Shown: piece by piece, positions 5,269-31,767 of the stretch
Numbering within the stretch: position 1 is the stretch's first letter
How the letters are laid out: the number at the start of each line of letters is the position of its first letter
Virus record (IMG/VR): IMGVR_UViG_3300020473_000086
DNA length: 31,767 nucleotides
DNA from: a virus
Strand: one strand, 5' to 3'
The notes under the pieces: generated by a model
Told to the model about the DNA's origin: nothing
Databases searched by the model: none
The model's input: only the letters and a program-made list of their open reading frames with translations
Translations under genes and position numbers: made by a program

Positions 5269-6207
5269 ATGTCCATCCGCCTTGGCTACGCATGCATTAA
5301 TAGCACTCTTCAAAAAACCGAAAAGGTACAATGCAGCCGTGGTATGATTAAACGTACTTTTAGGGCTAAAGGTCCAGAATACGCTGGTGAATTAGCTTTA
5401 TCAAACGTCCAAGATATGTTTAAAGTTATCGCCTGGAATGCTGCACATGGCATTCAGGTTTATCGTATGACATCTTGCTTATTCCCGTGGATGAGCGAAT
5501 ACGAAATATCTAATTTACCACAGTTCGAAAAAATCAAGTCAGCTCTCGAGCTTTGTGGTAGTTATGCAACTGAAAATAATCAAAGGCTGTCTTTTCATCC
5601 TGGTCAGTTTTGTGTACTTGCCAGCCCTAACGAACAAGTTGTAAAAAACGCAGCAATCGAGCTTAATAAGCATGCTGAGATTATGGACCTAATGAAGCTG
5701 CCGAACACCCCACAAGCTAAGATCAATATTCACGTCGGTGGTGCTTATGGAAATCATGATGCTGCCCTTGAGCGCTTTTGTTCTAACTTTGAAAAATATC
5801 TATCATATTCAGCACAATCGAGGCTCACTGTCGAAAACGATGACAAGCCAAGTATGTACTCTACCAAGATGCTTTATGAAGGAGTCCACAAGCGTATTGG
5901 CATTCCAATTGTATTTGACAGCCATCACCACGAGCTCGGTCCTGAGGACCAAGATTACCAAGACGCTTTTTATCTTGCTCGTTCTACATGGCCAGATGGA
6001 ATTCGCCAACAGTGCCACCATTCTAATTCTAAGAAATTATATGAAGATCCTAAGGTCCCTGCTATTTCACACAGCGCATGGTATTATACTCCATTTGAAA
6101 ACTTTGGCGAAGAAGTTGACGTGGTTCTCGAGTGTAAGCAAAAGGAAATGGCTTTATTCAAGTACCTAAAGGATTTTGAGCCAGAAATTACAAGATTAGC
6201 TAGTTAG
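5269..6207 (+). CDS. uvsE: UV DNA damage endonuclease
   Basis: RLGYACIN, RLSFHPGQF, INIHVGG, RLTVENDD, IVFDSHHH, VVLECKQKE motifs. Confidence 0.93.
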   Translation: MSIRLGYACINSTLQKTEKVQCSRGMIKRTFRAKGPEYAGELALSNVQDMFKVIAWNAAHGIQVYRMTSCLFPWMSEYEISNLPQFEKIKSALELCGSYATENNQRLSFHPGQFCVLASPNEQVVKNAAIELNKHAEIMDLMKLPNTPQAKINIHVGGAYGNHDAALERFCSNFEKYLSYSAQSRLTVENDDKPSMYSTKMLYEGVHKRIGIPIVFDSHHHELGPEDQDYQDAFYLARSTWPDGIRQQCHHSNSKKLYEDPKVPAISHSAWYYTPFENFGEEVDVVLECKQKEMALFKYLKDFEPEITRLAS

Positions 6208-7988: not shown

Positions 7989-8017
7989 GTGCAAATTAGC
8001 CCTAGATATGGTATTAT
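7989..8017 (+). promoter_or_regulatory. Promoter, GTGCAA family
   Basis: GTGCAA-17 nt-TATTAT, TGG extended -10, followed by TAATCATAA. Confidence 0.8.
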
Positions 8018-10694: not shown

Positions 10695-10724
10695 ATAATG
10701 TAAATTAATTTTAGTGGATTGGAT

Positions 10725-11207
10725 ATGTTTAAACAAAAATTAAAGAATGGCAAATGGTTTTCAAAGAAAATAGAAGTTAAAGAATCGACTGTTGACAAAG
10801 AGGGGCTGGGAGTATTCGCTACTGAGTTTATAAAAAAGTATGAGATATTTGAAAGCGCCCCAGTTTTAGTTTGGCATATGGACTTATTGAATGACTATAT
10901 GAGGCTACACCAAGCTGGACACTTATTGTCTGATCATGTTTTTGTTTGGGAGAAATCCAGTCATGCATTGTGTTTAGGCTATGGAACGATCTATAATCAT
11001 TCTAACGAACCGAACTCCAAGCATAGAAGAGTCTTTGATAAAAACCATCCTAGAATAGAATTTATAGCTTTAAAAGATATTCAGCCGGGTGAAGAAATTT
11101 TTCACCATTATGCCCCAAAAAAAGGTGATTTATTTTTTACTGATGGTGGCACTTTCGATTATGAGGGAGTTATAGACTCTAACGAGTTTCGAAAAGTTAA
11201 CTCATGA
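10725..11207 (+). CDS. SET-domain protein (putative lysine methyltransferase)
   Basis: EGLGVFATEFI, IYNHSNEPN and ALKDIQPGEEIFHHY SET motifs. Confidence 0.85.
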   Translation: MFKQKLKNGKWFSKKIEVKESTVDKEGLGVFATEFIKKYEIFESAPVLVWHMDLLNDYMRLHQAGHLLSDHVFVWEKSSHALCLGYGTIYNHSNEPNSKHRRVFDKNHPRIEFIALKDIQPGEEIFHHYAPKKGDLFFTDGGTFDYEGVIDSNEFRKVNS

Positions 11208-13656: not shown

Positions 13657-14988
13657 ATGGCTGACAAAGGAACAACTACTGACATCGCCCCAGTTAATCA
13701 CGCTGACGATGTTGCCGCCAAAAATTTTGACCTTGATAAGTTCTTGGTCAAGCTTCAGCTTGAGGAGCCATTCTTTTGCAAGGTTCTTCGTAAGGTTACG
13801 AAGGTGCGTACCGACGCAATTCCAACTGCTGGTGTACTTGCCCGGGATGGCGATATTAAAATGTGGTGGAACCCCAAGTTCTTGGCTAGCTTAACCCCTA
13901 AGCAGGTTCTTGGTCTTCTAAAGCACGAATGTTACCACTTGGTCTTTGAGCACACAACTACTCGACGATTTGATCCCCATGTTGTTTGGAACTATAGCGC
14001 TGATTTAGCCATTAATTCTCTTATTCCAGAAGATGAGCTTCCTGAAGGTGGCTTGATTCCTGGAAAGGCCTTTGAGGCTCTAACTGAAGAGCAGCTTGAG
14101 AAAATGACTGAAGCGCAGCTTAATCGATTTAACGTTCTTTCTGCTAAGATTGCATCTTTTCCTAAGTGTGAAGCCAGCGAGTGGTACTTCGCACGTCTCA
14201 TGGAAGATGAAGAAACCAAGGATGCCTTGACCAAGCCAGTCGATGGTGATGGAGAAGGAGAGGGTGGCGCTGCCTCTGGGCTTCCAGGCTCCATGGATGA
14301 TCATGAAGGCTGGGGAGAAATGACTGATGAAGAACGAGAAATTGCCAAAGGAAAGATTCGACAGGCTGTTGAAGAGGCCGTCAAGGAATGCGATAGGAAA
14401 GGTCAGTGGGGTTCGGTCTCCTCTGAGACTCGCGGCAAGATTCGTGAAGCTATCAGTAAGGAGATTCCTTGGGAGATGATCCTTAAGCAGTTCGTTGGTA
14501 TGACTCGACGATCTAATAGGTCCACTTCTCGAATGCGACTCAACAAGAAGTACCCTGGAATCCATAGCGGTCACAAGCGTGGATACACTTCTTCGATTGC
14601 GGTATACATCGATCAGAGTGGTTCGGTATCTAATGACGAGCTTAGTCTTCTCTTTGGAGAGCTTCGTAATCTGGCTAAGAACACTGAGTTTGTTACTTAT
14701 CACTTCGATACCGAGGTCGATGAGAGCAGTGAAACAGTGTGGCGCTCAGGTAAGACTCCTGAGACGCACCGGACCCGTTGTGGTGGTACTTGCTTCAAGG
14801 CGCCAACTGAGCACGCTAACAAGAATAAGCATCGCTTTGATGGCTACCTTATTCTAACTGACGGATACGCTCCTGATCCTGGTCACTCCCGCCTTAAGCG
14901 AGGCTGGGTTGTTACCACCGATGGCGCAATTGCCGACTTCATGAGCAACGAAGTTAAGGTCAAGATGAAGGAGCGAAAAGCAGCATGA
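13657..14988 (+). CDS. DUF2201-type putative metallopeptidase plus VWA-like domain protein
   Basis: HECYH (HExxH) in N-domain; G/D/E-rich linker; VYIDQSGS MIDAS, GGT and ILTDG motifs. Confidence 0.85.
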   Translation: MADKGTTTDIAPVNHADDVAAKNFDLDKFLVKLQLEEPFFCKVLRKVTKVRTDAIPTAGVLARDGDIKMWWNPKFLASLTPKQVLGLLKHECYHLVFEHTTTRRFDPHVVWNYSADLAINSLIPEDELPEGGLIPGKAFEALTEEQLEKMTEAQLNRFNVLSAKIASFPKCEASEWYFARLMEDEETKDALTKPVDGDGEGEGGAASGLPGSMDDHEGWGEMTDEEREIAKGKIRQAVEEAVKECDRKGQWGSVSSETRGKIREAISKEIPWEMILKQFVGMTRRSNRSTSRMRLNKKYPGIHSGHKRGYTSSIAVYIDQSGSVSNDELSLLFGELRNLAKNTEFVTYHFDTEVDESSETVWRSGKTPETHRTRCGGTCFKAPTEHANKNKHRFDGYLILTDGYAPDPGHSRLKRGWVVTTDGAIADFMSNEVKVKMKERKAA

Positions 14989-22524: not shown

Positions 22525-23610
22525 ATGGAAATTTCAACCTTCAAGACAGTCGCCCGTAACCTTCCACCCCACATCGCTGTCCTCATGCGCGGCCCCACCG
22601 GAATCGGTAAGTCCCAAGTGACTCGTACAATCGCGGACGAGCTCGACCTACCATTCATCGACGTTCGAGGATCGACCATGCAGGAAGGTGATGTGATTGG
22701 TTATCCGGATCTCGAAGCGATGAAACGGGATGGTGTCTCCACCTTCTGCCTTCCGAGTTGGTTCATCCGCGCTACTAAGGAACCCTGCGTTCTCATGCTC
22801 GATGAGCTCAACCGCTCGATGCCAGGCGTCATGCAAGGCTTCTTCCAGATCGTCCTCGACCGAGAGTTGGGTAACGACTCGGAAGGCAACCCAATTTGTT
22901 TACACCCTGAGACTCGCGTCTTTGCGGCAGTCAACGTCGGTAACGAATACGACGTCAATGACATGGACCCCGCGCTGCTGCGACGATTCTGGGTTGCTGA
23001 CCTCGAGCCTGATGTAAAGGGTTGGATGGACTGGGCACGCGATGCCGGTCTTGATGCGACTCTCATTGAGTTCGTCGGTCAGAATCCTGAGCACTGGCGA
23101 GTAGACGCCGCACAGGCTGAGCCTGGTAGCGTATGTCCCAACCCAGCTTCTTGGCATCGATTGGACGAAGCACTCAATCACTGCGATTGGGCGCCAAGCG
23201 ATATCGCTGGTAACAGTCTTCCTAACGGGTTCTACCCAATGTTGACTGGCTTCATCGGTACTGAGGCTGCGATTGCTTTCGCGGACTTCGTCAAGAACTA
23301 CGAGAAGAACATTACTGCTGAGGATATCCTCGACGGCAAGGTAACCGCAAAGGAGCTTGAAGATGCTCCTGCTAGTCTGGTAACTGGCGTCATCGATAAG
23401 CTCGAGCACCACAGCAAGGACAATAAGTGGACTGCCAAGCAGGTCAAAGCTGTCGCGGCATTCGCTAAGTCTCTCGGCGGTGAGCTCCTCCTACAGACCT
23501 TCACGGCTGTACAGAAGAGTAACAACATCGACAACCTGGTCAAGCTGAACAAGATTATCGGCAAGGATGTTGTGACTATCGTTAACGGCGCTCGTAACGC
23601 CACCAAGTAA
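22525..23610 (+). CDS. MoxR-like/dynein-related AAA+ ATPase
   Basis: Walker A GPTGIGKS, Walker B LMLDELNR, FAAVN sensor, MDPALLRRF Arg finger, PNPASW. Confidence 0.9.
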   Translation: MEISTFKTVARNLPPHIAVLMRGPTGIGKSQVTRTIADELDLPFIDVRGSTMQEGDVIGYPDLEAMKRDGVSTFCLPSWFIRATKEPCVLMLDELNRSMPGVMQGFFQIVLDRELGNDSEGNPICLHPETRVFAAVNVGNEYDVNDMDPALLRRFWVADLEPDVKGWMDWARDAGLDATLIEFVGQNPEHWRVDAAQAEPGSVCPNPASWHRLDEALNHCDWAPSDIAGNSLPNGFYPMLTGFIGTEAAIAFADFVKNYEKNITAEDILDGKVTAKELEDAPASLVTGVIDKLEHHSKDNKWTAKQVKAVAAFAKSLGGELLLQTFTAVQKSNNIDNLVKLNKIIGKDVVTIVNGARNATK

Positions 23611-27431: not shown

Positions 27432-27600
27432 AAAAGGCTCTTTGGTATGGGGTATCTACCCCCCGATTCGAGGTGAGGGCTATCCTGGACCCAAGGTCCT
27501 AGGTATTGTTTATGCTCATGTGAAAGAGGGCACATGGGTCGAGTATCCCGGAGGTTACCTATGTCTTTTTCGCTCCCTGGATCTCGAATCCGCCGATTAG
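27424..27600 (+). CDS. SH3/KOW-like microprotein, 58 aa (not in ORF track)
   Basis: MFKKGSLVW...LGIVY...LDLES. Confidence 0.55.
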   Translation: MFKKGSLVWGIYPPIRGEGYPGPKVLGIVYAHVKEGTWVEYPGGYLCLFRSLDLESAD

Positions 27601-27971
27601 GGAATCACACGTTACCCTCCCTGTCCTTGGCGAGTGGGGCGTTAGGACGCCCGGGCGAGACCAAGTTGCGCTCGGCCTGCCTCCCGGTAGAAAACCAGGT
27701 GCGTTCTCCGGCCTCCGGCCCAAAAAAAGTGAGTGAATCGCCGTCCCGGCGCAATAAAGTGAAAAGTCCCTGTGCCCCGAGCGTCCCGCTTAATTGTTTT
27801 TTTTACTAAAAGGCCTGTCATTAATACAATTATATTGCATATTTAAAGAATGTAAGTGGGATTGTTTGGTCTGTGCCCACTATAAAATAAAATGGGATCG
27901 GCATATTAGCAACTAGTTCAGTTTATGCTGCCGGTCTCATGCAAAGTGATGATAATAAAGGCGGTTAAACA

Positions 27972-28352
27972 ATGAAGATCACCAAGCGACAACTGCGAAG
28001 AATCATTCGTGAAGCAGTAATTAACGAGGCGCTGCCACCGCATCTTAAAAAACACTTCAATAAAGACGGTTCTGCTAAAGTTCACAACCCAATGGGTTAC
28101 GAAATAAAGGACGTTACTCCAGCAGGTTACGGTCCGGATGAAGTTGACAGCTATGATCTCGGTCGAGAAGATTCGCTTGCTGGCATTCGACCTCAACTAC
28201 CTGATGAAGAATACATGCGGGGATACAACGAGGCACAGGTGGATGCTGGTTTACCGAAAATGCAGGCACCTAGTGATAGTGGTCGAGGTAAGAAACTTGA
28301 TCCGAGCAAGCTCAAAGGCGCGTTCGCCGGCAAATACTATGGGAGTAGATAA
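27972..28352 (+). CDS. MKITKRQLRRIIRE-leader protein 1
   Basis: Shared N-terminal leader. Confidence 0.8.
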   Translation: MKITKRQLRRIIREAVINEALPPHLKKHFNKDGSAKVHNPMGYEIKDVTPAGYGPDEVDSYDLGREDSLAGIRPQLPDEEYMRGYNEAQVDAGLPKMQAPSDSGRGKKLDPSKLKGAFAGKYYGSR

Positions 28353-28616
28353 ATGAAAATTACCAAACGACAACTTCGAAGAATTATCAGGGAAGAGAAA
28401 GCTAGGCTTGTTTTAGAAATGAATCCCGACGGCTCAATATCTGATGATGAGGTAGACCTCGAAGACGAGCTGACCCAAGAGGTAGTTCGTGATCTAGAAG
28501 GGCTTATTGCAAAAGTGCATACTCAAGCAGAGCGAATAGGTGGAGACTTCAGGTCACCCGGCATTAAATCGAGAGTTTTCAAGGCCATGGCTATGGTTTT
28601 ACACGGAGCAAGATAA
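28353..28616 (+). CDS. Leader protein 2
   Basis: MKITKRQLRRIIREEKARLVLE. Confidence 0.8.
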   Translation: MKITKRQLRRIIREEKARLVLEMNPDGSISDDEVDLEDELTQEVVRDLEGLIAKVHTQAERIGGDFRSPGIKSRVFKAMAMVLHGAR

Positions 28617-28617
28617 T

Positions 28618-28899
28618 ATGAAAATCACAAAACGACAATTAAGAAGAATTATCAGGGAAGAGAAAAATCGTATCCTTCGCGAAGAGACAGGCTATCAGGC
28701 ATCAGTTGGCGGAGTTGATATCCCAGAAATGCTGGATGTTGCATACGAGCCAATCCAGGAAGAGATGGACCAGATGCAGTTATCTGATCTTATGGAGTTC
28801 AAAGCAGCCGTAATGCAAGGTGGTTTTGACTTGACACAAAGAATCCTGAGAGACATTGAGGCGCTCATTCAGTTTGCTCGAGAAGACGAAGGAATGTAG
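28618..28899 (+). CDS. Leader protein 3
   Basis: Start re-assigned to MKITKRQLRRIIREEKNRILRE. Confidence 0.8.
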   Translation: MKITKRQLRRIIREEKNRILREETGYQASVGGVDIPEMLDVAYEPIQEEMDQMQLSDLMEFKAAVMQGGFDLTQRILRDIEALIQFAREDEGM

Positions 28900-28908
28900 G
28901 ATATACCA

Positions 28909-29757
28909 TTGCAGCTTTTACGTGAATATATCAGGTGTTTGCTTATTGAATCTGTCGAGCTTGACGATCGGTTAATTAACCCCAACTATCCTGCCGAGGA
29001 AGTAAGGGTTGCCATCGCTCAGGCAGGACTAACACCGGAAGATATCAGCATGCTTAATCAGTATTTCGAGCTCGATAGCGTCGGCGACCCTGAGATGACT
29101 AGGGATGCTTTGAAAGCATTCGGTGGAGATTACAGTAAAATAGAACCAACACGGGAGGTTGGGTACAAACTGATGGGAGCTCTTAAACCTTTAAAGCAAA
29201 AGGGTTATAGAAGCAAGTATTACAAAAAGCAAAGAGAATCCTTTCCCGATATATCTCCTGCGGAATTTGACAGTATAGAGCGATTTAAGGAAGCTGTCAT
29301 GATCGGAGGCCAGTCGGCACTTAACACTGCGAATGATCCTATTTTAAAAAAGTTAGGATATACAGATTATGTGCAGCGTTTGGTTAAGCTTTCTGGAGAT
29401 TGGATCAGTTTCTTTAAGAAGTTTCCTGAAGTATTCGAACTTGAAGTTACTAGACGTAATAAGCATATTGAAGAGTTTAAATTGATGGGTGCAATTCCTC
29501 ATTATGAGAAACTTCAGGACGATTACGATGTAATACGCGAATTAGAGAAGAAATTGATTAAAGAAACGCCATGGGCTATTAAGGGCGGGGCCTTTTCAAG
29601 TGGGCCGGATCAACTTGTTAGACTCTTGATAAATGGCTTTCAGACAGAGCTTACCGATATGGTCATACCGTGGGAAGACGGCGCTGGGATAGAGATTGGG
29701 AAAAAGACAGGATTGCCAGAATCCGTTGCAAAAATAACAAAATGGTATAACAGTTAG
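28909..29757 (+). CDS. 282-aa protein with variant leader MQLLREYIRCLLIE
   Basis: TTG start; amphipathic leader ending LIE. Confidence 0.7.
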   Translation: MQLLREYIRCLLIESVELDDRLINPNYPAEEVRVAIAQAGLTPEDISMLNQYFELDSVGDPEMTRDALKAFGGDYSKIEPTREVGYKLMGALKPLKQKGYRSKYYKKQRESFPDISPAEFDSIERFKEAVMIGGQSALNTANDPILKKLGYTDYVQRLVKLSGDWISFFKKFPEVFELEVTRRNKHIEEFKLMGAIPHYEKLQDDYDVIRELEKKLIKETPWAIKGGAFSSGPDQLVRLLINGFQTELTDMVIPWEDGAGIEIGKKTGLPESVAKITKWYNS

Positions 29758-29765
29758 GATAAACA

Positions 29766-30134
29766 ATGAAAATCGCAAAAAGACAACTAAGAAGAATTAT
29801 CAGAGAAACAGTAAGAGAAAAGCTTCAGCCTAGTGATCAGGCGCCGGCAAACTTTTCTAGAAAGTTTTATGAAGATGGTACCCTTACAACTCCAGAAGAC
29901 TTTAAATCATTACATCCTGGTGATAACTTATCTTTAAATGGAAGACCTATAGTCGTCATAGGAGTCAGTCCGATGACTGGCGAGGTTGACTATGTAGATC
30001 GGGGCAAAGCGACCCGAAAGCACTTTGATTATAGAATGGCACTGGTTGATGAGCCCGGAGAAATGCCCGAATACGACGTGGTTTATCTCGGCCCGGGTGA
30101 ACCACCACAAAACACGAGGTTACCAAGAAGATGA
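29766..30134 (+). CDS. Leader protein 4
   Basis: MKIAKRQLRRIIRETVRE. Confidence 0.8.
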   Translation: MKIAKRQLRRIIRETVREKLQPSDQAPANFSRKFYEDGTLTTPEDFKSLHPGDNLSLNGRPIVVIGVSPMTGEVDYVDRGKATRKHFDYRMALVDEPGEMPEYDVVYLGPGEPPQNTRLPRR

Positions 30135-30394
30135 AAATTACAAAAAGACAATTGAGAAGAATCATTAGAGAAGAGAGAGCTAGGCTCTTAAGAGAAGAAG
30201 ACCCATTCGATGCTGATAGAAGAGCGTGGAAAGGTGAACCCGATATGGATGTAGTAGAGGCTGCAGACGAACTTTACACTGCGCTTAAAACCCTGACAAG
30301 GCTGGGCGTTGAAGCGCTGAGCGATGATGAGCTTTATATAATGACAGGTGAGCCAGAGGGCATTACTGTTAAGGTACTAAGGAGAGGTAGATAA
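30131..30394 (+). CDS. Leader protein 5
   Basis: MKITKRQLRRIIREERARLLRE. Confidence 0.8.
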   Translation: MKITKRQLRRIIREERARLLREEDPFDADRRAWKGEPDMDVVEAADELYTALKTLTRLGVEALSDDELYIMTGEPEGITVKVLRRGR

Positions 30395-30395
30395 G

Positions 30396-30722
30396 ATGAA
30401 AATCACAAAGAGACAACTTAGAAGAATTATTAGAGAAGAAAAACAAAGGCTTTCAAGAAGAAAATTAAATGAGACTCATTCGATGGATGCCGTCAAGGAG
30501 TTAGATGATATTAGGATCGCTATTGATGATATCGCTGTCGGGGTATATCAAAATGATCCACACTTAGCCCAAGACTTAGAGATGCAAGTGGAAAGATTAG
30601 AGATTCTTCATGATAAGCTTAAAAGATCGTTAGCTCAAGGTGGGAGAACACCTACTGAAGAAGAGAGCGGTGTACCCGATTCTAAGAGATCAGTTATTCA
30701 CAACAGAAGACCAGATTGGTAG
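30396..30722 (+). CDS. Leader protein 6
   Basis: MKITKRQLRRIIREEKQRLSRRKLNE. Confidence 0.8.
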   Translation: MKITKRQLRRIIREEKQRLSRRKLNETHSMDAVKELDDIRIAIDDIAVGVYQNDPHLAQDLEMQVERLEILHDKLKRSLAQGGRTPTEEESGVPDSKRSVIHNRRPDW

Positions 30723-30727
30723 GAATT

Positions 30728-30952
30728 ATGAAAATCACAAAGAGACAATTGAGAAGAATCATCAAAGAAGAAAAAACCAAGCTTATGAACGAAATGGCAT
30801 CGGATGATAGCTACGGGGATGAATATATGGAAGCGATGATGAACCTATATATGGACCTCGAAGCTGCCTTCACAAAGGCAAAAAGAGCTGGAATCGATTA
30901 CACTGATTTAGATACAGCTTTGGATGATGCCAAGCAGTCGACTGGATATTAA
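30728..30952 (+). CDS. Leader protein 7
   Basis: Start re-assigned to MKITKRQLRRIIKEEKTKLMNE. Confidence 0.8.
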   Translation: MKITKRQLRRIIKEEKTKLMNEMASDDSYGDEYMEAMMNLYMDLEAAFTKAKRAGIDYTDLDTALDDAKQSTGY

Positions 30953-30994
30953 TTCAAAAATCGAAAATGTAACAATTGATAAAAGGAGAAAACA

Positions 30995-31090
30995 ATGAAG
31001 AAATTATTACATAGACTAACCAAGTTATTTAACGAGCACTGCTGCTGTTGTTGTGGGTGTTGTACATGCGCAGATTGTGGATGTAAGTGA
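30995..31090 (+). CDS. 31-aa Cys-rich peptide, metallothionein-like (not in ORF track)
   Basis: Strong SD aaaaggag; MKKLLHRLTKLFNEHCCCCCGCCTCADCGCK. Confidence 0.7.
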   Translation: MKKLLHRLTKLFNEHCCCCCGCCTCADCGCK

Positions 31091-31217
31091 AGATAATAGA
31101 GTGGCACAAAGATAAACTTGATAGCCTCATATTTCGATGGGGTTTATCAAGTTATCAATTGGCGTGGATATCGTTTATCAAAGGATTAATCATAGGATAT
31201 ATAATAGGGTTATACAC

Positions 31218-31523
31218 ATGAAAATCACAAAGAAACAACTTAAAAGAATTATTCGAGAAGAGAAAGCTAGGCTAGTGAAAGAAGCCTGGGGTGGCGCGCT
31301 AGGTCTTCCTGGTACCATTGACGCCCGTGCACGAGGTGAGCATCAGAAGGCTGCGCCTCCTGAATCCGAAGGTAGGAACATGGTGCAATGGAAAAGTAAC
31401 GGCGACATTAAAAAGTATACTCAGAATCTAGAGTATATCATTGAGTATGGTGGTATGGATTTTTCCGATGCTGAAATTAAAAAAGCGGTGGCTGAAGCCA
31501 TGGCGAACCTTGGGATCAAATAA
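31218..31523 (+). CDS. Leader protein 8
   Basis: Start re-assigned to MKITKKQLKRIIREEKARLVKE. Confidence 0.8.
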   Translation: MKITKKQLKRIIREEKARLVKEAWGGALGLPGTIDARARGEHQKAAPPESEGRNMVQWKSNGDIKKYTQNLEYIIEYGGMDFSDAEIKKAVAEAMANLGIK

Positions 31524-31744
31524 TGAAAATTACAAAAAGACAACTAAGAAGAATTATCCGTGAAGAGAAGGCAAGGCTCGTTAAAGAGCAAAGGGGCGGC
31601 CGAAGAGAGGGCCTTGATATTCTCGACGAACTGAGAATGATGGGAATTCCTGATAGTGTGCTAGTTGACTATCTTGTTGGTAACTGGATGTCAGGCGATG
31701 ATGCATTTCAGTCTATGCTCGATTTCAAGGATAGCGAGGTTTAA
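31523..31744 (+). CDS. Leader protein 9
   Basis: MKITKRQLRRIIREEKARLVKE. Confidence 0.8.
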   Translation: MKITKRQLRRIIREEKARLVKEQRGGRREGLDILDELRMMGIPDSVLVDYLVGNWMSGDDAFQSMLDFKDSEV

Positions 31745-31767
31745 ATGAAAATTACAAAAAGACAACT
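31745..31767 (+). CDS. Leader protein 10 (partial, runs off window)
   Basis: ATG AAA ATT ACA AAA AGA CAA = MKITKRQ. Confidence 0.75.

Follow-up and report, generated by a model that had tools for sequence, protein, structure and literature searches.

Phage T4 packages several internal proteins into its head, and a capsid-targeting sequence (CTS) of the internal proteins IPI, IPII, IPIII and Alt was reportedly described by Mullaney and Black in 1996 (reviewed in PMC9026906, PMC3012670 and PMC5694885). The T4 CTS comprises 10-19 residues and ends at the short hydrophobic-x-Glu motif after whose Glu the protease gp21 cuts (PMC9026906, PMC5694885), and the internal proteins of T-even phages are diverse, with only the CTS conserved among them (PMC3012670). 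In the giant phages phiKZ, 201phi2-1 and SPN3US many head-internal proteins are cut after Glu by a gp21-related protease, and their propeptides are thought to target them to the prohead (PMC5694885, PMC10052503). Here we analyze a stretch of virus DNA of 31,767 nucleotides (IMG/VR record IMGVR_UViG_3300020473_000086, hereafter the window), the 3' end of which holds an array of genes that begin with one and the same short basic peptide, the tag, followed by variable, acidic to neutral cargo. We consider it probable, by analogy, that this tag is a propeptide that targets proteins to the prohead core and is cut off by the head protease, i.e. a functional analogue of the T4 CTS.

From position 27972 to the end of the window, ten co-oriented and tightly packed genes, nine complete and one truncated, start with MKITKRQLRRIIRE. 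The complete genes, all on the + strand, occupy 27972..28352 (126 aa), 28353..28616 (87 aa), 28618..28899 (93 aa), 29766..30134 (122 aa, with Ala at position 4), 30131..30394 (87 aa), 30396..30722 (108 aa), 30728..30952 (74 aa), 31218..31523 (101 aa) and 31523..31744 (73 aa); only the start of the tenth (31745..31767, + strand) is contained in the window, which cuts it. A first-pass annotation, made by a model from the letters of the window, had located all ten of these starts correctly. The tag common to the ten genes is 14 residues long, with M1, K2, I3, K5, Q7, L8, R10, I11, I12 and E14 free of variation, and its helix contains six basic residues and one acidic residue. As that annotation stated, Leu8 is encoded by CTG, CTT, TTA, CTA and TTG, and arginine in the tag by CGA, AGA, CGT and AGG. 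Pairwise comparison of codons 2-14 yields 177 synonymous versus 32 non-synonymous differences, and the nucleotide identity of 0.84 within the leader falls to 0.29 directly before it and to 0.28 in codons 23-36. Because of this excess of synonymous differences and the confinement of identity to the leader, we conclude that selection acts on the peptide and not on a DNA repeat. As the first-pass annotation had argued, a recent DNA repeat is ruled out by the mostly synonymous differences and the unrelated flanks, and so is a signal at the level of the mRNA. The cargo had been described as acidic, and residues 15 to the end indeed have an isoelectric point of 4.1-6.9, i.e. acidic to neutral, in all nine complete genes. 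The statement that the genes diverge completely behind the tag was too strong: many of the cargoes are unlike one another, but some are related, such as those of 27972 and 29766, which fall into a single BLAST cluster. Further, a layout of helix, GG-x-(D/F) and helix is common to 28353, 28618, 30728, 31218 and perhaps 30396.

The tag is by no means limited to the window. In three complete relatives we counted 27, 30 and 41 tagged genes, most of which stand in long arrays. A profile built from residues 1-33, used in a scan of the kind that the first-pass annotation had proposed, recovered 8,803 protein clusters (50% identity, E <=0.001) among 1.84 billion representatives in public data. A variant with K-S-Q-L-K-Q in its middle is equally common (at least 120 IMG/VR stretches) and belongs to a sister group of ~180-kb T4-like phages. 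A start codon (ATG, GTG or TTG) underlies 498 of 511 motif matches, so that 97.5% of them are N-terminal, the exceptions being in-frame fusions. To describe the end of the tag we used a search seeded on residues 1-8 only, which gave 432 unique open reading frames (ORFs) of 64-551 residues (median 102) in the fetched loci. Among these I11 is conserved in 93%, I12 in 96% and E14 in 97%, and conservation collapses after residue 15. An end of the I-(K/R)-E type, formed by I12-x-E14, is present in 97% of the ORFs and matches, as a sequence motif, that cut by gp21-type proteases. The conserved block had previously been taken to end at LVLE-type sites, which do conform to hydrophobic-x-Glu; however, the sharpest boundary falls after E14, itself the end of a hydrophobic-x-Glu motif, and a downstream motif of this kind at about residue 22 is seen only in a subset with an EEK-x-R-L extension. 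Judged from this pattern the likeliest cut would be after E14, and not only at the downstream sites.

At 33-80% protein identity, synteny links the window to G002, a complete 293-kb genome from IMG/VR; relatives are plentiful in marine metagenomes and IMG/VR, and GenBank phages gave no DNA or protein match to the window. All five large relatives (273-293 kb) have genes for a Gp23-type major capsid protein and for a prohead protease of the Peptidase_S77 (T4 gp21) type. Among cultured phages, Microcystis phage Mel-JY01 and Flavobacterium phage immuto have the nearest proteases. Because of the synteny with G002, together with the S77 and Gp23 genes of the relatives, we assign the window to a T4-like jumbo phage; by these genomic criteria it is a piece of an uncultured marine phage from a lineage of about 270-300 kb. 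A giant-virus origin of two tagged contigs with a CheckV completeness of 2-3% was ruled out, both being syntenic with G002. The co-occurrence of the leader with a T4-like prohead protease, which the first-pass annotation had named as a test, is established in relatives of the window's phage: with both leader variants pooled, 21 of the 22 tagged contigs that are at least 50% complete encode Peptidase_S77, the shorter contigs being fragments. A predominantly cellular distribution, the opposite outcome, is not seen, since among 185,579 species genomes the exact tag occurs in only two, both marine metagenome-assembled genomes that also hold an S77 gene. The tag is restricted to T4-like phages with an S77 protease. 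Two side observations concern these relatives. In G002 two tandem, near-identical major capsid protein genes are separated by a GC-rich hairpin (176269-180150; L078, L088, L090), and gene 190 of phage immuto (L097:1145-1903), the only match from a cultured phage, encodes a 253-aa protein that starts with a shortened tag, M-K-K-S-Q-L-R-Q-I-I-K-E.

In at least seven genomes tagged or tag-like genes adjoin the protease, scaffold and capsid genes. The conserved gene between protease and scaffold starts tag-like in all five large relatives (e.g. MAKITKRMLKGIVKE in G003), and a second head-module gene of these phages carries the tag-like stretch KITPNFLKRIVVEE plus the extension. Five tagged genes of another genome, G004, come directly after its capsid gene, behind a terminator and with no space for a promoter. 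The sister group has tagged genes immediately upstream of the protease, in the slots of T4 genes 67 and 68, and elsewhere immediately downstream of it. The scaffold label is putative, being given to a head-module protein solely because of where its gene lies, its acidity and its conserved ends; BLAST detected no similarity between this protein and gp22 of P-SSM2. From the conserved ENQ motif to the mature domain, the capsid protein of the lineage has a single hydrophobic-x-Glu site, (V/L)-L-(R/K)-E with A or S as the next residue. This candidate maturation site (VLRE before A) resembles the tag end I-I-(R/K)-E, and its predicted position matches that of the T4 gp23 cut after E65. Also in the head module, a small and very basic protein is encoded after the conserved tag-like gene in the sister group (L234:3752-3967, L233:175-408, L237:1247-1465), and in Mel-JY01, too, a head-module gene bears the annotation ribosomal protein S21.

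BLAST clustering of 409 cargoes from about 45 genome fragments gave 211 clusters, 156 of them singletons; the largest, to which the cargoes of 27972 and 29766 belong, has 67 members. Acidic cargoes make up 86% of those in the fetched loci. By this measure the cargo is hypervariable and subject to fast turnover. Searches with the cargoes recovered no known function: eight of 79 representatives matched PHROGs, all of them families of unknown function, none of the nine window genes matched PHROGs or Pfam, and a search of the ESM Atlas retrieved only unnamed viral clusters, besides a possible lead to Pfam DUF8139. The tag strings were likewise not found in the literature searched. Among the window genes, 28353 belongs to a conserved family with more than 120 relatives, which is under purifying selection and well folded in an AlphaFold model; here the leader forms a helix (residues 5-21) of lower confidence that is joined by a flexible linker to a confident helical body. 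A fold search of this model against viral structures gave nothing below E = 1. Several single ORFs contain two or three tag-plus-cargo units in frame (proteins P0124-P0134; L021:4949, L013:7666 and others). Their junctions look like translated ribosome-binding sites (G-E-S or E-G-K), with the internal Met often replaced by Ile, Val or Thr, and such ORFs may be natural polyproteins.

With regard to expression, the window contains nine + strand copies of GTGCAA and TATWAT at a spacing of 17-18 nt between positions 7989 and 26407, where 0.03 would be expected by chance. Most have TGG before the -10 element, and from their sequence they look like an early-type promoter family. All nine lie upstream of the array; none is found in it or in the AT-rich, gene-free stretch ahead of it (27800..27971, + strand), which lies behind a hairpin and T-run resembling a terminator (27779-27800). 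This motif is absent from G002. The region preceding the gene-free stretch (27590-27800) is GC-rich (~60%) and ends in this hairpin and T-run just before the array; the long ORFs in it look spurious, and an Rfam search of the window, including this region, returned no match.

We propose the following course of events. During head building the basic amphipathic helix of the tag would dock each new protein onto the acidic scaffolding core. The gp21-type (Peptidase_S77) protease would cut after I-(K/R)-E14, and in the extension subset also after about E22. The mostly acidic, fast-turning-over cargo would stay in the head, and part of it would probably exit together with the DNA upon infection. 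The analogy with the T4 CTS, as drawn in the first-pass annotation, is supported in part: the T4-like lineage, the S77 protease, the gp23-type capsid protein, the N-terminal position, the cleavage-type end and the tagged head-module genes speak for it, but the two peptides are not homologous. The tag has nothing beyond the M-K start and the I-x-E end in common with the confirmed T4 string, and because only these two ends are shared we regard it as an analogue and not as a homologous CTS. Other observations also weigh against packaging. The cargoes are acidic, whereas the T4 internal proteins are basic, and it would be unusual for one genome to encode as many as 27-41 different packaged proteins. 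Most tagged genes stand beside auxiliary genes, in variable parts of the genome that are distant from the head genes. The similarities of the head-module genes to the tag are short, and their profile scores weak (E 2e-4 to 0.4 among 59 ORFs), although the peptides are in register. The T4 late promoter TATAAATA has no copy in the window and eight in G002 versus 24 expected, and k-mer enrichment upstream of tagged genes revealed no promoter. Among cultured phages, INPHARED gave no match to the tag and no carrier with virion proteomics was found, and P-SSM2 and S-SRM01 are without it.

In an alternative reading the products would be small host-takeover or regulatory proteins that are never packaged, their basic helix serving as a handle for one conserved partner in the cell such as a nucleic acid, a polymerase or a chaperone. 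The location of the arrays in variable regions among auxiliary genes (for a MoxR-like ATPase, a VWA protein and a SET-domain protein) would agree with this, as would the proteins being small and acidic in the manner usual for products of phage early regions, the charge of the helix (six basic residues against a single acidic one), and the failure to find a late promoter in the window or in G002. A mere handle would, however, leave unaccounted for why the tag ends in a head-protease motif in 97% of cases, why tagged or tag-like genes adjoin the protease, scaffold and capsid genes, why the array and the stretch directly ahead of it contain none of the nine early-type promoter copies, and why the tag is confined to T4-like phages with an S77 protease. 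We judge this alternative unlikely.

It is also conceivable, though we give it slightly less credence again, that the tag does load proteins into the head but that these are extra core, scaffold or charge-balancing filler for assembly, later degraded or inert, and not delivered effectors. The tagged genes of the sister group at the positions of T4 core genes 67 and 68, the product of the former being likewise small and acidic, and the general acidity of the cargoes, which recalls scaffold proteins, point in this direction. Against it stand the 156 singletons among 211 cargo clusters from ~45 genome fragments, with lengths of 64-551 aa, and the existence of well-folded families under purifying selection such as that of 28353. 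Because of this very high turnover and the wide range of lengths, accessory cargo fits better than parts of an assembly machinery. A far more improbable origin is a single divergent paralogue family that arose by tandem duplication, in which the N-terminus would merely be the best-conserved part and no portable module would exist. The tandem arrays, the helix / GG / helix layout of several small members and the 67 cargoes in one BLAST cluster are what such a family would show, but it is hard to reconcile with 211 cargo clusters spanning 64-551 aa, the sharp drop of conservation after residue 15, the same tag at the head of conserved head-module genes, the 8,803 clusters at 50% identity and the fused ORFs, which repeat the whole unit of tag plus cargo.

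The array of the window further includes a gene with a second class of leader, M-x-LLREYIR-x-LL-x-E (28909..29757, + strand, 282 aa, TTG start). This 14-residue peptide of the LLREYIR type likewise ends in hydrophobic-x-Glu, and 16 such N-termini, often in tandem, are present in the fetched related loci. A 31-aa Cys-rich peptide (30995..31090, + strand) also begins with a tag-like segment, its first 14 residues forming a predicted basic helix that ends in Glu, but its membership in the array is uncertain. Ten of its last 17 residues are Cys, and an overlapping 44-aa hydrophobic ORF comes next (30995-31221). Neither the gene at 28909-29757 nor the tag-like start of the 30995 peptide had been recorded in the earlier annotation. 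Outside the array, a short (332 aa) adenylosuccinate-synthetase-like gene at 38-1036 has phage matches that include groups known for PurZ-type enzymes and is followed by a cytidylyltransferase-like gene at 1072-1488. Auxiliary genes of the window encode a UvdE endonuclease (5269-6207), a SET-domain protein (10719-11207), a DUF2201 metallopeptidase with a VWA-like domain (13657-14988) and a MoxR-like AAA ATPase (22525-23610); the DUF2201/VWA-like and MoxR-like genes are kept beside a tagged array in G002 too.

In its widest form our proposal is tentative, and we hold it with less than even confidence: roughly every tenth gene in an uncultured but abundant marine T4-like clade, and more than 8,800 protein clusters, might be labelled by the tag as encoding capsid-carried, injected effectors. 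These would form a very large and unexplored library, with a second, interchangeable class of tag and with polyproteins cut by the head protease. An anti-defence or takeover role of the cargoes, as suggested in the first-pass annotation, is pure speculation, none of the 79 cargo representatives having a Pfam match. If the tag works in the proposed manner, sequence alone would suffice to predict which proteins of a major group of ocean phages are injected or head-internal, and thousands of genes now called hypothetical would become candidates for counter-defence and host-takeover functions. What is known in T4 for three or four proteins would then extend to tens of genes in each genome, and one could try the tag as a signal for loading foreign proteins in those relatives that are amenable to culture.

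When set beside the described systems, the tag is closest in layout to the T4 CTS. Both are short N-terminal peptides, of 10-19 residues in T4 and 14 in the present phages, carried by proteins that are otherwise unlike one another; both start with M-K and end in the hydrophobic-x-Glu motif of gp21, and both occur in phages with a gp21-type protease, a scaffold and a gp23-type capsid protein, shown here in relatives of the window's phage. In both systems the cargo genes vary between relatives and lie mostly away from the head genes. The differences are that the present tag is strongly basic whereas that of T4 is not, that there are at least two tag classes as well as tandem tag-plus-cargo fusions, and that packaging and cleavage are proven in T4, whereas here they are predicted from sequence. 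There are also 27-41 tagged genes per genome versus about four in T4, so that by gene counts the present tag set would be about tenfold larger. The small genes of T4 gp67 and gp68 are located immediately upstream of the protease, in the slots that tagged genes fill in the sister group, and gp67 is acidic and contains LIKEEK, but the N-termini of both proteins are unlike the tag and no homology was detected. As in the reading proposed here, the giant phages have many head-internal proteins, including paralogues with identical N-termini, that are cut at a short Glu motif by a gp21-related protease; their propeptides, however, are mostly longer than 100 residues and end in the motif A/S-x-E, their gene order is not T4-like, and their proteins have been seen in virions by mass spectrometry. 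A conserved tag on diverse internal proteins was already known from T-even phages (PMC3012670); in the present case the tag is a different, basic one, on acidic cargoes.

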